This document shows positions 21,001 to 27,000 of a stretch of DNA of 37,998 nt, one piece after another. The stretch's first letter is position 1; each line of letters begins with the position of its first letter. This DNA comes from a virus (lineage: Duplodnaviria > Heunggongvirae > Uroviricota > Caudoviricetes), in IMG/VR virus record IMGVR_UViG_2526164630_000037. One strand, written 5' to 3'. A program made the position numbers.

Positions 21001-24000
21001 ATTATGCGTGGGTGCCTTTCGGCTGATGGCTGGAGGGTGAACCTGAAGGCCTGATGTGGAAAGGCCCCGAGTCAACTTAACGTTAACCCGAGGCCCTAAC
21101 ACTTCGTACCTTAAGCAAGTAGAAGGTTAGCGCCTCTCTGTAAAAGGAGTCAAGCGCTATGTCGCAAAAATCGCTTATCACCGTCACAATTTGCATGACG
21201 GTTATCTTCACCATCTGGATGTTGCACGGTTCACTGTGTGAGTTCCGGCTGAATTTGTGGGGAGCGGAGTTTGCGGCGTTCTTACAGTGTAAGCAGTAGG
21301 AAAAACGCGACGGGGACGGGAGTCCCCGTCAACTGGTTGCTGAGGTTCAGCCGATATGGCACCCGTTTCAGGTGAGAGAATGAACGATAAAATTCTCTGG
21401 TATATGCAGCGTGTTGTGAGAAATTCCCGCAACCCTGAATTTATGAATGAAGTTAAAGACGCCTGCCTTAAAAAGCAGGCGTTTTGTTTTGAGGCACCTG
21501 ATGGCTTTTTGGTGCTGCGTTCTGTGCTCAGTGCTGATGGTATCCCTTATGTTCTGGTGTTGCTGGGCGTGTGTACGGGGAGTAACAGCGTTGAGCGTTA
21601 CCTGCCGGAGGTGAAGACATTAACCCATCTGGCTGGCGGACGCTGGGCTGAGTTCCATACGGCAAGGCGGGGATTTATCCGGCTGGGAAAACGACTGGGC
21701 TTTGAGCGAATGCCGGATGATGAGGATGGCTTCATGGTGTTCAGGATAGCGGTCTGACTGCTACAGTTTTCATCATTGTGTTTAAACCAACATTGTAATT
21801 CACATTCTGACCCTGCTCCGGCAGGGTTTTTTGTTATCCAGGGGGCCATTATGGGTGGAAGTAAAGGCGGTGGTGATACCAAAGTAAAACCAACAGCAGC
21901 GCAAATAGCACAGGAAGAAGTGGCCTGGAAAGGGTGGCAGGATTACAAAAATATCCTCCGCCCGGCTGAAGATAACTTCATGGAAAAGGTCGATGACCTG
22001 AACAGTGAGCAGCAGTACGACAATATTGCTGGCACCACAAATCTGGGGTATCAGAAACAGTTTGGCGAAGCACGGAAGGAGCTTGCGGGTAATCTTGCTC
22101 AGTCCGGCGTTGACCCATCCAGTGGTCGTTTTAATGCGGTAATGAATGCGAACCAGAGTGACCAGGTAACCGGGCAGATTGACACAACCACACGGGGGCA
22201 GGTATCGCAGGCAGATAAGTATGTTGCCGGGCTACAGGATGTTGCTGCTCTCGGTTCTGGTCAGAAGGCGGATGCGTTACAGAGTTTTAACTCTCTGGCA
22301 GACAGCAGTCTGGCAAAAGCTAAATCGGATGCACAGGCGGCGTTTACGAAACAGCAGGGGCGAGCCTCTCTTGTTGGCGCTGGTCTGGGTGCGGCAGGTG
22401 CATATGCGATGCATAAGGCTGGCGGTAGCGGAGGAAGTGGCGGTGCTAAAACACCTGGCACCGGCGCTAATGCCATTCAGCATCAGGCTCAGAACTGGAG
22501 ACTGTAATTATGGAGTATGGCAAATACGAAACTCTCGCAAGGGCTGGTTATTCAGGAGCAGACCGCCCACAGGGTGACTGGCAGACGTCAGCAGCGCTGA
22601 CACGCCAACAATACGACGACTGGCGAACCAGATATTTGCCCCGCGTGGCAAGGCTGGCTGACCTTGGGGAGAACAACAGTCTGATGAATGCACAGCTTGC
22701 ACGGGTGGGAGGCCTTGCCACTTCCAGTCTCCGTACAGCGCAGATGGCGCAGGATAACCAGATGGCGAGATACGGGGTAAACCGCCCGGATAATCCCGAC
22801 AGTAATACGCTGGGGTTACGTAATGCCCTGGCAATTGCTGGCGCGAAAAATGGTATCCGTGAAGCCGAACAGGATCGCCAGATGAATATTCTGACGGGGG
22901 CTTCTGCACCGGCAAGACAGAAACTGAGTGTTGGCGGCCAACTGGTGGCAGCGTAAGGGGGCAATATGGGATACGGTTTACTGGATATTGCAAATCAGTC
23001 GCGGCGTGAGGCATTACAGGGAATAAGTGACGCAGACAGACGACGTGAAGAAATTGAGGCTGCGAACAAACAGATGGCGGCGCAACAGAAAGCGCAGAAC
23101 AAGCAGAATATCGGTACGGGCATTGGTACGGGGGCGGCTATTGGCGCATCCGTTGGTGGTCCTGTTGGTGCTGTTGCTGGAGCAGTAATTGGCGGCATTG
23201 CTGGTTCTTTGTTTTAAGGAGTGGTGAATGAGCGGATTTGCACAGGGGTTACTTGCCGGATTCAGCACCGTTGACCAGGCAATGACCCGTCGTAAGGAGC
23301 TTGGTCTGCGTGAAGCACAGCTTGCCCGGCAACAGAAAAATAACGAGCGCGATTTTGAGTTTGCGCAGTCTCAGTTTGAACATAATAAAAACGTTGATCA
23401 GCGGAACTTTGATTACAGAGCCAAAGTTGACGACCGTAATTATGCACTGAAGGAAAGGGAGTTTAACGCTAACCAGAATTACCGGAATGCGTCACTGGGT
23501 ATGGAGCAGCAGCGACTCCAGTTGCAGAAATACAACCAGCGACGGCTTGAGTATAACGATATGATTGCCCATAGCCAGCCACTAATGGAAGCGCTTGGAA
23601 AAGCAATTGAGGCTGGCGATCAGGAGGCTGCAACGCGTCTGTTCGGGCAGCTGCCAAAGGGACATCCATTAATTCTTATGTCAAACGAAGGCTATGCAGC
23701 GAAAGCGGGTCAGGCCGTGATCAACCTGCAAAAAATCTTTGGTGATAAGCCGGACATGGCGATCGATTCGCTGAATACCCCGGAAAATCTCGATGTGCTT
23801 TCCGGCGTGTTTGCCCCGGAACTACAACAGCGTATTGGCATGCCTGATTCAACCGGGGACAAAACGATAAAAGAGGCCAGGATTGGCAGTATCGTACCAG
23901 CGCAGCAGGAAGGGTACGTACTTATTGGCCTTGATCTCACATACAGCGATGGCTCCACCGCGCATAAACCTGTAACAGAATACGGCAGTGCGCACCCTGA

Positions 24001-27000
24001 TGATCAAACCGTGCTGGCGATACCCGTTGATAAGGCTATCGCTCAGGTCAGGGATCGCAGCAAATTTGCAGAGATATCGAAAAATTATGGTTATTTTATG
24101 CCGAAGCAGCAGGGACTTTCTCTGAAAGAGCTTCAGAAGGGGGCCAGCAACGTAGCGGCGGACGCGATCAAGAATGGCGGTAATGCTCAGGCTGCGGTGG
24201 ATGAATATTATGCTGCGACTGGTTCACAACCGCATCAACAGAAAATTCAGCAACAAAAACTTCAGCAACAGGTTATCAACTGGGCGGGAGATGATCCTGA
24301 TAAGCTGTCATTTGCCAGAAATGTAGCGGCCCGTCAGCCTGAAATGCTGGAACCTCAGAATCAGAAATTGCTGGAGAACGGGTATGCGAATTTTCTCCGT
24401 ATTCAAAAGGCCAGGGGGGAACAGGCCAGAGATGAAAGTGCTTCATCTGCATCTCAGTTTATCCGTGGACTGAAACAGAATTACGCCCAGTAATTCACGA
24501 TATTCCATTAATACCATTTCCTGATGCCCGGCCATTGTGCCGGGTTTTTTTATGGAGTCTGTATGGCCTATTCAGAGGAACAGCGTCCTGAGGCGCAACT
24601 CGGTAACCAGAATCGTAACAGCCTGAACATTCAGCAACCCGGCGAAACTGACAGCTATGAAGCATTTTTCTCTGATCCGAATCGCTGGAAGGATAACAGT
24701 ACGTCGTTCAGCCTGGGCGATGTATTGCCAACAATGGGTAAAGGTTTCGCCCAGTCCGTCCGGGGAACAGGGGAAATGGCCCGTGGACTCGGTGATGCGA
24801 TGATTCAGAGCCCGGTAAAAACAGGGGCGCGTATTTTAAATGAGTTCAGCCGTATGGGGCTGCCGGGTGTCGCAACTGTGCAGGATATTTTTGCCGGTGG
24901 CAGCAGGGGGGCTGATGAGGTCATCGATACCCTGCCTGATGGCAAAAACGCGGTTACTGATACTGTCGGTAAAGGTCTGAAGGCAACCGGTAAGGCTGTC
25001 AGTGATGGTGCCAAAGCCACTGATGAATGGCTGACCGGTAAGATGTCGCCGGGTGCAGTTCGTGCGCTGAATACGCCGATGACCGAAGGCTATAATGATT
25101 CTGCGGTCTGGGTGGCGAAGGGTGTAAACCTGATTGGTGCGCTTGTACCTGATATGGTTGCTGGCGGTGTGGCTAGAAAGGTGGGTGATGTCACACTGCG
25201 AAAAATGCTGACCGCCGGGCTGGAGAAAAAATACATCGCGGCAGGGATGCAGCCGGAAAGAGCCACGGCACTGGCAGCAGAAGCTGTCGATAAAAAAATG
25301 CCGGATTTATTCCAGGCGGGCCTGATCACCCATTCCACTGTAAGTGCACAGGGGCAGAGTGCAATGGCGGCAGCAGATGCTGTTCTTAATGCTGATTACT
25401 CTGAGCTGGCGCAGTCACCGAAATTTCAGCAGACGTTTTTGTCCATTGACGCCGACCCGCAGCACGCACAGCTTACTGATCGCCAGAAAATGGATCTGGC
25501 AAAAGAGCGTGTTGCCGATGAGGTGCGCGCGCAGCTGGCAACCGATCCTGAATTGCTGGCTGTGAATGCCATGGCGGCAAAACTGGGTGACGCACAACTG
25601 TTTAATCTGGTGACACGAGGCACAGCGAAGACCGTTAAAAGCGGCATTGTCAGAAATGCCACGGAACAGGGGGCGATTAATGCGGCGCAGGGCGGCTATT
25701 CACGCTATCAGGAAAACACGGCATTGCGTGAGACCGCCGGAATGGGTGTGTCACCGTGGGAGGGCGTGGCTGACGCAACGATCGAAGGTGCAGCCTTTGG
25801 TGCTGCGATGGGGGCTCCATTCGGTGCGGTTGCCGGATATCGTGGCAGACGTCAGGCCGCAGAAGAAACCGCCATGCGTGATGCTGAAACCGTGCAGCAG
25901 GACGACGCAGCCCCGCAACCAGAATCTGTTGATCCGGTGGCGCAGCAGCGTGAATCCATGCAGGGCATGAATCGCGAGCAGCTTCTGGAGCAGTATGCTG
26001 ATGCGGATATGGCAACAGAGGGTGACGCATCCGCAGCTCATCGCCGGGAAGCTGCCAGCCAGTTGTTGAATGAACTGGACGAACAGACGAAGCGACAGGC
26101 TGTGATGAATGAGCTGAAGGCGAAGCCGCGTTCTGAACTGCTTGAGGAATACCGCAGACTCAGCCAGAAAGAGGGGCGCACCGAGACTGAAGAACAACAG
26201 TTTCAGGCAATACGAGAAGTCATTCGCCCACAACAGGAAGTGACGCCGGAAGCACAGTCACAGCCTGAAAATGCGGAGGATGGTAACGGGAGCATTTACC
26301 CGACGGTGCGGTTCCGGGACCCGAATGAAGTCCGCATTGAAATTAACGGGAATGGTGCGTCCAGACCAGCGGAACGCATTGAGAAGGTGCGCCCGGACAA
26401 CCGTTATTTCACGGATGAGAAAAGCGCCATGGGGAGTGATGTTTTCCGTAATGCCGCCGCCACCGGCCTGAAACCGTCCGTAGTGAAGAAAGGCGAGAAT
26501 CAGTATGCCGTTGAAATGGATAATCCTGCGTTCTCTGAAGATGTGGCAACGGAAACCATTAACACCCTGGCTGACGGAGAGCGTATTGCTGATGCTGACC
26601 CGATGGAGCAGCCCGCGTTCATGCGTGACCCGCGATTCCGTGGTGTCACGGGGGATGATACGGAGGTACAGGCCCGCCTTGCCCGTGGCAACGCGCCGAC
26701 GGCAGAGGAGCTTGTACGTTCACAGATGGCTGAAGGTGATGCCGGTCCGACAGCACAGGAGTTAACTGAGCGTCCACGCCTGCCCGCTCCCGGCGATATT
26801 CATCCCGGACAGGGATATCCGTTACCGGGAGAAGTGGCGCGTACGCCGGATGAAAATCAGGCCGGACGTGGTGGTCGTTTTACCACAACCGGTGAGGTTA
26901 AGGGCCAGAGTTTCCAGAAAGGACAAGCTCCGGCACCGGAAAACGCCGCTGGTCGCCAGGGGGAAACACTCGAGGGTGACATGGTTCGTCGTGGTCTGCC

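Follow-up and report, generated by a model that had tools for sequence, protein, structure and literature searches.

Five genes (g1 to g5) that lead into a gene for a giant polyvalent protein were analysed in a 37,998-nt stretch of viral DNA (IMG/VR record IMGVR_UViG_2526164630_000037; the window). It is reasonably probable that the virion carries g2 to g5 and the giant protein in its interior, from which they would be expelled at infection to build or assist a trans-envelope conduit, and that g1 is a non-virion helper. This reading is carried by the presence of these proteins in virions, their absence from the resolved shell and tail, the need for two of them after packaging and the conserved gene order. 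By analogy with known systems g2 to g5 are probably ejected; membrane-channel roles in delivery of the giant protein, as well as the role of g1, we infer. The window is that of a short-tailed Shiga toxin (Stx) phage of the Sp5/VT2-Sakai/933W type (Sepvirinae). The 3.5 kb around the cassette are 99.9% identical to VT2-Sakai/Sp5, Stx2 II, the PA-series and other Stx-converting phages, and the region is present at nearly full length in 419 complete Escherichia coli genomes. The open reading frames (ORFs) of the cassette, with product lengths in amino acids (aa), are:

21380-21757, + strand: g1 (Sp5 ORF75/ECs1237; phi24B vb_24B_43)
21851-22507, + strand: g2, 218 aa (Sp5 ORF76/ECs1238; phi24B 'gp51')
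22510-22956, + strand: g3, 148 aa (Sp5 ORF77/ECs1239; phi24B 'gp50')
22966-23217, + strand: g4, 83 aa (Sp5 ORF78/ECs1240)
23228-24493, + strand: g5, 421 aa (Sp5 ORF79/ECs1241; phi24B 'gp48', vb_24B_47)
24563-32944, + strand: giant polyvalent protein gene, last of the module, 2793 aa (Sp5 ORF80/ECs1242; phi24B 'gp47')

The genes, the deletion phenotypes and the virion presence have already been published. The assignment of an integrated ejection-type module, its GNAT-fold-headed conservation across many genera, the paralogy of g2 and g3, the wide g2 family and two annotation corrections appear to be new in the searchable literature.

Cassette proteins in virions of phage phi24B

A cryo-electron microscopy (cryo-EM) structure and a virion proteome of phage phi24B are given in a bioRxiv preprint (10.64898/2026.04.10.717836). 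Proteins of the window and of phi24B are 98% (g1), 99% (g2), 98% (g3), 100% (g4), 100% (g5) and 97% (giant) identical. In the proteome rows listed for purified phi24B virions, the peptide-spectrum matches (PSMs) totalled 10962 for the giant protein, 1634 for g5, 523 for g2, 129 for g3 and 13 for the g4 frame (10.64898/2026.04.10.717836). No peptide or entry for g1 was found among these rows. According to the same rows, g5 peaked sharply in the gel slice adjoining the 45-kDa capsid protein, which fits an intact 47-kDa protein, g2 peaked in one gel slice, beside the 24-kDa adaptor, and 83 of the 129 PSMs of g3 came from the batch digest. Copy numbers were estimated crudely from batch-digest PSM counts, which were length-normalised and scaled to 12 portal copies; this gave about 36 copies of g5, 32 of g2, 48 of g3, 23 of the giant protein and 6 of g4 per particle. 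The estimate is crude but not absurd, since the scaling gave 6.3 copies for the nozzle, which is a hexamer, and 22 for the fibre, which is present in 18 copies. In a paper on phages of enterohaemorrhagic E. coli (PMC12502783), mass spectrometry (MS) was reported for major structural proteins only.

The atomic model of phi24B comprises the capsid, the portal, two adaptor rings (gp64 and gp62), the nozzle gp57, the fibre gp61 and the needle gp56 (10.64898/2026.04.10.717836), and g2 to g5 and the giant protein are not part of it. Diffuse unassigned density was observed in the adaptor lumen and was gone in emptied particles, and the giant protein was not visible in cryo-EM or negative stain despite its abundance (10.64898/2026.04.10.717836). 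An earlier note on this DNA, made from the sequence alone, had put all five genes forward as a possible ejection or internal-protein module. The particle data agree with this for g2, g3, g4, g5 and the giant protein, which were found in virions by MS and are absent from the cryo-EM model, and disagree for g1.

The authors of the preprint proposed the giant protein alone as an ejection protein and dismissed g5 ('Transcription factor?') and g4 ('bacteriocin homolog') as contaminants (10.64898/2026.04.10.717836), because of their annotations. An alternative along these lines, in which g5 is a transcription factor, g4 a bacteriocin and the rest are lysogenic-conversion genes, can draw on this classification, on a GenBank note on g5 and on the PGAP name of g4, and also on the position of the genes after lom and hok, flanked by terminator-like hairpins, and on the dispensability of g1, g3 and g4. 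It is nevertheless very improbable: g5 has no family match, exceeds the portal in batch-digest PSMs in the rows listed, and is essential after packaging; the gene order is kept in phages without lom and hok and in non-lambdoid phages; the GC content of the cassette matches that of the structural genes and not that of the lom island; and the Bacteriocin_IIc match of g4 is sub-threshold and stems from a glycine zipper. Contamination or a lysogenic-conversion role is thus essentially excluded for g2 and g5.

Deletion phenotypes in phage Sp5

In-frame deletions across Sp5 were made by Mondal et al. (2016; PMC5155283), whose Table S1 links ORF75-80 to ECs1237-ECs1242. Deletion of ORF79 (g5) or ORF80 (giant) yielded no plaques and no lysogens, and both defects were complemented in trans; DNase-resistant phage DNA stayed at the wild-type level and the heads were morphologically normal (PMC5155283). 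Deletion of ORF76 (g2) markedly reduced infectivity and lysogenisation, and ORF75 (g1), ORF77 (g3) and ORF78 (g4) were non-essential (PMC5155283). The phenotype of the ORF79 and ORF80 deletions is that of a classical ejection-protein mutant. A requirement for infectivity but not for head assembly or packaging is seen fully for g5 and the giant protein and partly for g2, with g3 and g4 dispensable; the best-supported reading makes g5 and the giant protein indispensable, g2 important and g3 and g4 auxiliary on K-12. The ejection function suggested in the earlier note therefore gains from the essentiality of g5 and the giant protein after packaging and from the lowered infectivity upon loss of g2; g1, which is dispensable and undetected in particles, falls outside it.

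Mondal et al. assigned ORF79 and ORF80 to 'tail formation' because particles lacking either of them were not labelled by immunogold with an antibody against the tail fibre (ORF67) (PMC5155283), and this result stands against an internal location. On the main rival explanation, g5 and the giant protein, perhaps also g2, would be external-tail components or assembly factors (Mondal et al. 2016). The unlabelled mutant particles, DNA-filled and normal-headed, speak for it, as does the fact that the cassette genes adjoin those of the nozzle and the needle. We consider it unlikely. The phi24B tail seen by cryo-EM is complete without g2 to g5 or the giant protein, and the immunogold result is a negative one, obtained on negatively stained lysates. 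Mutants without the nozzle or the needle gene behaved in the same way, with DNase-resistant DNA at wild-type amounts, so that the assay discriminates poorly. As stable closure of the tail can also require internal proteins, the tail-assembly and internal-protein readings may in part both hold.

In some O157 Stx2a prophages, g5 is interrupted by IS629 after about 90 codons and is a pseudogene (AP012534.1, Stx2a_F765, positions 2429-5007 of locus L105; KP682386.1, PA36). As the deletion of Sp5 ORF79 abolishes infectivity, these prophages are predicted to release non-infectious particles. No mention of the cassette genes was found in the lysogen-expression paper.

Conservation of the cassette

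Searches with tblastn using g2 and g5 revealed distant homologues in Aeromonas phage phiARM81mr and in about 100 Vibrio phages; with g5 as the only query, a protein search found nothing but near-identical E. coli sequences. The gene order in phiARM81mr is tail-tip fibre, p64, p65, p66, p67 ('bacteriocin'), p68 and the giant p69. The p64 protein has 120 aa and is 40% identical to g1; it carries no annotation as a virion structural protein, unlike p65, p66, p68 and p69, the homologues of g2, g3, g5 and the giant protein. Vibrio phage 1.205.O carries the same six genes after a needle-like gene. A scan of viral contigs with the g2 alignment yielded 80 loci and, owing to narrow search patterns, reached Aeromonas only. 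ORF and blastp analysis of about 35 divergent Aeromonas-type prophage loci showed an invariant order of nozzle, needle, g1 to g5 and giant, with no lom, no hok and none of the two small post-needle genes of Stx phages in these loci. Conservation of the order together with the giant gene, which the earlier note had named as a check, was hence observed in these loci, in phiARM81mr and in Vibrio phage 1.205.O.

Some Aeromonas prophages carried genes for KilA-N, an AntA antirepressor and DUF7946/7947 between g5 and the giant gene (L048 13759-14670, L058 13467-14363 and L057 12908-13828), which marks this spacer as a site of moron insertion. At the same loci, g5 was a divergent variant of 525-540 aa (33-36% identity) beside g1 to g4 that were 78-100% identical, indicating a recombination boundary between g4 and g5.

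A search with the nozzle protein reached podophages of about 60 kb from Ralstonia, Burkholderia, Serratia, Klebsiella, Ochrobactrum, Pseudomonas and Rhizobium at 28-31% identity, with Gerry and 30 other Ralstonia phage records among them. Five relatives were examined: Gerry (Ralstonia), JC1 (Burkholderia), Parlo (Serratia), ZX1 (Klebsiella) and POI1126 (Ochrobactrum). In all five, the nozzle gene was followed by a small ORF, an annotated GNAT of 141-151 aa, a virion protein, later a protein of 393-515 aa, and a giant protein annotated as 'DarB-like' or 'PLxRFG'; a PAPS reductase and small ORFs sometimes preceded the 393-515-aa protein. The PAPS reductase (cysH-like) genes of Gerry (L099 19778-20503) and JC1 (L100 20592-21314) lie between the g2-like and the pre-giant protein.

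The cassettes of these GP4-like, Lessievirus, Parlovirus, Lastavirus and Namazuvirus phages thus share with the window a homologous nozzle (28-31%), a GNAT, a g2 homologue (hhalign probability 96-97.5%), a 393-515-aa protein and the giant protein. They differ in that their N-acetyltransferase of about 145 aa is, unlike g1, recognisable as such, in that the g2-like domain can form part of a fibre protein with a Peptidase_S74 chaperone, and in the PAPS reductase of two phages. No homologues of g3, g4 or g5 were detectable by hhalign in these five types of cassette, and the comparison of g5 with the pre-giant proteins of other clades was insignificant.

The proteins g2 and g3

The g2 protein possesses a conserved C-terminal Gly/Ala-rich (GxxxG) segment and matched phrog_8003, 'virion structural protein', with E 1e-8. 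An exhaustive phmmer search assigned 384 cluster representatives to its family at E<=1e-3, mostly of 185-250 aa and with near-full-length alignments. In hhalign comparisons, g2 matched the protein following the GNAT in Gerry and JC1 (probability 96%, E 4e-9) and the N-terminal part of the corresponding proteins of POI1126, Parlo and ZX1 (97.5%, E 6e-12), which end in a Peptidase_S74 chaperone. The motifs P-x-ED-x-F and GV(D/N)P(T/S)SGR(F/Y) are common to g2 and these homologues. A comparison of g2 with P22 gp7 was insignificant. Since g3 resembles g2 (probability 65%, E 6e-5) and, weakly, the same g2-like domain of the Ralstonia/Burkholderia protein (81%, E 1e-5), g2 and g3 are probably old, distant paralogues, as judged from their profiles.

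The protein g1

The g1 product is predicted to be a small GNAT-fold protein and may or may not be active. It is called so because of its predicted structure, in which the GNAT alpha/beta fold is seen, and because annotated GNATs occupy the same position in five other genera; as no Pfam GNAT family was matched, the assignment rests on predicted structure and position. Compared with the GNAT superfamily, including the small viral AcrVA5, g1 is without the first strand, without a Pfam GNAT match and without a clear R/Q-x-x-G-x-G/A motif. Its place in the operon is that of gene 14 in P22 and of the annotated N-acetyltransferases in related phages. The hhalign comparison of g1 with P22 gp14 was insignificant, and PDB profile searches with the g1 and g2 alignments returned nothing significant. 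As g1 was undetected in particles (phi24B rows listed) and is dispensable, it is not a virion component; it is a non-virion accessory and the conserved first gene of the cassette. Most likely, g1 would modify the internal proteins, or help them to assemble, in the cell that produces the phage.

The proteins g4 and g5

The g4 protein has a charged helix at its N-terminus and, at its C-terminus, a hydrophobic segment of about 35 aa with a glycine zipper; none of the other four proteins has a strongly hydrophobic segment. Its position and sequence are conserved in Aeromonas and Vibrio. The Pfam family Bacteriocin_IIc was matched with 19.7 bits, where 27.1 are required, and over the glycine zipper only. 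A class II bacteriocin, as in the PGAP name, was rejected for g4: the profile is sub-threshold, the neighbours are virion genes and no double-glycine leader was found on reading the sequence.

The g5 protein is predicted to be mostly alpha-helical and is the leading candidate for a gp15/gp20-like component. An AlphaFold2 model of low confidence (pLDDT 63, pTM 0.36) showed a helix at residues 16-128, a small sheet at 213-266 and a helical C-domain at 299-420 that was better predicted than the rest. No Pfam or NCBIfam match and no DNA-binding or sigma/initiation-factor domain was found in g5. In GenBank, vb_24B_47 is described as 'similar to putative transcription initiation factor'; this label is unsupported, because g5 has no fold match and no DNA-binding domain, and a transcription factor was rejected for want of such a domain and of a fold or family match. 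A Gly-rich start, G(F/L)xxG(F/L)xxG, is found in the proteins just 5' of the giant gene in all clades and in P22 gp20, and is a lead only.

The giant polyvalent protein

The giant protein of the window matched the Pfam domains LPD5, LPD1, MuF_C and LPD38, all above the cut-offs. In phage P1, several small head proteins are needed to incorporate DarB, and the Dar functions are dispensable on non-restricting hosts. The class of large polyvalent proteins, predicted to be packaged and injected as early effectors, has been defined previously (PMC5512222); the giant protein fits it, with several LPD and effector domains in one polypeptide that is encoded with virion genes. The giant protein of Parlo starts with an SLT transglycosylase domain and has LPD39 near its C-terminus, at a place equivalent to that of LPD38 in the Vibrio and E. 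coli giants. An SLT-type domain sits at the N-terminus of T7 gp16 (PMC8954989), and an N-terminal muralytic domain is a hallmark of that protein.

A cargo-loading function in the manner of the P1 Dar proteins, by which g2 to g5 would recruit and hold a giant anti-defence protein in the head for passive injection without a conduit, is suggested by the membership of the giant protein in a class predicted to be packaged and injected (PMC5512222) and by the annotation of its relatives as 'DarB-like antirestriction'; the strict co-occurrence of the cassette with the giant gene fits either model. This function is improbable, given that neither g5 nor the giant protein can be spared on the very K-12 background that produced the phage, where restriction is no issue. 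A short-tailed phage needs tail-extension proteins, for which there are no other candidates in this genome, and the Parlo giant carries an SLT domain of the gp16 type. Moreover, g1, g2, g3 and g5 matched no Dar or defence profile, and g4 gave marginal matches only (PADLOC, E about 0.005).

Comparison with known ejection systems

It is fairly probable, by analogy, that g2 to g5 and the giant protein correspond in function to P22 gp7/gp20/gp16, T7 gp14/gp15/gp16 and DEV gp73/gp72/gp71. Ejection-protein genes cluster beside tail genes in the order small, medium, large, and this arrangement is found here. The late operon of P22 contains Hc3 (gene 10), needle 26, 14 (151 aa), 7 (229 aa), 20 (471 aa) and 16 (609 aa). 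Mutants in the P22 ejection proteins form normal, DNA-filled, non-infectious heads, and gp14, which belongs to Pfam DUF2824, is not known to be part of the virion and helps the assembly of the E proteins. The cassette shares with P22 the order of a nozzle-type gene, needle, small gene, a protein of about 220 aa, one of about 420-470 aa and then the largest protein, and the phenotype of the Sp5 g5 and giant deletions resembles that of P22 ejection mutants. It differs in having no detectable homology, in the additional g3 and g4, and in its last protein, which is polyvalent and of 2793 aa compared with 609 aa.

According to a published survey, gp14-like proteins have 181-240 aa and gp15-like proteins at least 431 aa, and gp14-, gp15- and gp16-like genes form a small operon (PMC8954989); the corresponding values here are 218 aa for g2 and 421 aa for g5. 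With T7 gp14/gp15/gp16 the cassette has in common the size class of the first protein, the small-medium-large order and, in a relative's giant protein (Parlo), the SLT domain; it differs by the lack of an ordered core stack in the phi24B maps, of homology and of SLT in the window's giant protein. The co-transcribed ejection proteins of phage DEV are a 17.7-kDa membrane protein, a 521-aa helical tube protein and a 3398-aa virion RNA polymerase, the last of which was found by MS and is invisible in the maps (PMC11445570). The pattern of these Schitoviridae (DEV gp73, gp72 and gp71; N4 gp52, gp51 and gp50) recurs in g4/g2, g5 and the 2793-aa giant protein. The differences are a giant protein without RNA polymerase, no sequence similarity, an order reversed with respect to the DEV numbering, and the additional g1 and g3.

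Besides the immunogold result, several observations weigh against the assignment of an ejection module headed by a GNAT-fold protein. The hhalign comparisons with P22 gp7, gp20 and gp16 were insignificant (probabilities <5%), there was no sequence or fold match to known ejection proteins, PDB profile searches were empty, and Foldseek with the low-confidence g5 model gave no PDB match reaching E 0.001. No classical transmembrane segment was found in g1, g2, g3 or g5, g4 was detected by only 13 PSMs in the rows listed, g3 and g4 are dispensable on K-12, and the phi24B evidence, as far as its rows are listed, comes from a preprint. As to g1, no Pfam family was matched by any of 15 homologues, even at E<=10, hhalign comparisons with annotated phage GNATs were negative, and the canonical acetyl-CoA motif is not evident, the loop being GVCTGSNS in E. 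coli and GWGDGGAP in Aeromonas. N-terminal acetylation of g5 by g1 was rejected, the N-terminal peptide of g5 having been identified unacetylated in a search that included acetylation as a variable modification; lysine acetylation, or acetylation of other internal proteins, may remain for g1.

As the hhalign comparisons with classical ejection proteins were all insignificant, homology to them is not claimed. Families of ejection proteins are notoriously divergent, so that an ejection function is compatible with this result.

Gene layout and neighbouring genes

Apart from the cassette genes, the following features were located in the window:

16217-17920: nozzle, podovirus-type
17917-19185: needle, podovirus-type
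19200-20926: low-GC island between needle and g1, with a 92-aa ORF, a 205-aa 'membrane associated' ORF (phrog_425) and lom
21159-21299, + strand: Hok/Gef-family toxin ORF (NCBIfam HokA, E 9e-10; PGAP 'Hok/Gef family protein')
21809-21828, + strand: terminator-like hairpin with T-run in the g1-g2 spacer
24526-24545, + strand: terminator-like hairpin in the g5-giant spacer

All five ORFs lie on the + strand, each with a Shine-Dalgarno sequence, and the co-orientation and starts given in the earlier note were confirmed. They are real genes and not chance ORFs, as they are conserved across genera and four of the products were seen by MS in the near-identical phage phi24B. They match PHROG families 610, 611, 596, 594 and 601, all of unknown function. 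Scans of the five proteins against Pfam, NCBIfam and PADLOC gave only sub-threshold matches of the glycine-zipper type for g4 and nothing defence-related. For g1, databases use a start at 21356 (133 aa), and the Shine-Dalgarno-like GGTGAGAG precedes 21380 only. The giant ORF is open from 24524, the start taken in phi24B and in the first reading; its true start is likely 24563, giving 2793 aa. The ATG at 24563 has an upstream GGAG and is the start annotated in Sakai (ECs1242) and F765, and the first 13 codons from 24524 overlap the terminator-like hairpin.

The tight packing described in the earlier note holds from g2 to g5, with gaps of 2 nt (g2-g3), 9 nt (g3-g4) and 10 nt (g4-g5), but not for the g1-g2 gap of 93 nt or the g5-giant gap of 30-69 nt, both of which contain hairpins. 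The g1-g2 spacer has just 8 nt in Aeromonas loci. The same note had correctly described a short protein with a C-terminal glycine-zipper segment, which is g4 (Pfam Gly-zipper_YMGG, E 9e-6, below the gathering score), and low-complexity regions, which are the Gly/Ala-rich C-terminal segment of g2 and a Q/N/R-rich helical N-terminus with a Q-run in g5. A strong inverted repeat within g1 (ACGCCTGCTTTTTAAGGCAGGCGT; 21459-21482, and 21437-21535 on the - strand) is terminator-like on both strands; it gave a weak, sub-threshold Rfam small RNA match and is probably due to chance or a coding-sequence hairpin.

The genes 5' of the cassette encode terminase, portal, capsid, adaptors, a collagen-like lateral fibre, nozzle and needle. 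With a podovirus nozzle and needle upstream, there is no lambda-type siphovirus structural region that terminates at lom. The view that the set sits after lom, at the usual end of the structural genes in lambda-like genomes, was therefore not upheld: in relatives the cassette directly follows the needle gene. The lom/hok block is, on comparison of the loci, a later insertion into an older contiguous needle-to-giant operon, since Aeromonas-type loci have the cassette without lom and hok and the GC content is 43% at 19-21 kb (the lom block), compared with 50-55% for g1 to g5 and the other structural genes. For the 205-aa protein (gp54), and perhaps for the small one as well, the phi24B preprint suggested a location at the needle tip and possible binding to BamA (10.64898/2026.04.10.717836). 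A type I toxin-antitoxin locus (21010-21330), overlooked in the earlier note, lies between lom and g1 and consists of the hok ORF and a sok-like RNA; the latter matched Rfam RF01794 with 35.6 bits, under the gathering score. The hok locus is missing from the Aeromonas and Vibrio versions of the operon.

Proposed mechanism and significance

On the reading preferred here, g2 to g5 and the giant protein would be carried by a T=9 podovirus within its head or its tail lumen. At infection, the internal proteins would be expelled through the nozzle once the needle is released, and would build or assist a trans-envelope conduit for the DNA and the 300-kDa protein. Tentatively, the glycine zipper of g4 and the Gly/Ala-rich C-terminus of g2 may insert into membranes, the long helical g5, at about 36 copies, may form a gp15/gp20-like tube or an adaptor to the giant protein, and g3 may be an auxiliary paralogue of g2. 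A further-reaching proposal, which we regard as rather doubtful, is that the cassette is the Stx-phage form of an ancient delivery system in a large clade of T=9 podophages, made up of a GNAT, g2-family proteins, a helical adaptor and a giant polyvalent protein. In the producing cell the GNAT-fold protein would chemically modify or chaperone the internal proteins, and a conduit of g2 to g5 would be specialised to pass a protein of 300-500 kDa together with the DNA. If this were true, the ejectosome would consist of protein families that have no relation to the T7 and P22 ones and would have an enzyme-like assembly factor of its own.

Stx phages spread Shiga toxin genes, and the question addressed is how DNA and a 300-kDa protein pass from a short tail across the envelope. 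Deletion and proteome data, together with synteny, suggest which proteins make up the delivery apparatus, and the annotations 'transcription factor' (g5) and 'bacteriocin' (g4) are corrected. The cassette of Stx phages is linked to a module that begins with a GNAT and occurs in phages of eight or more genera, and may serve as a model for the packaging and injection of giant polyvalent proteins.

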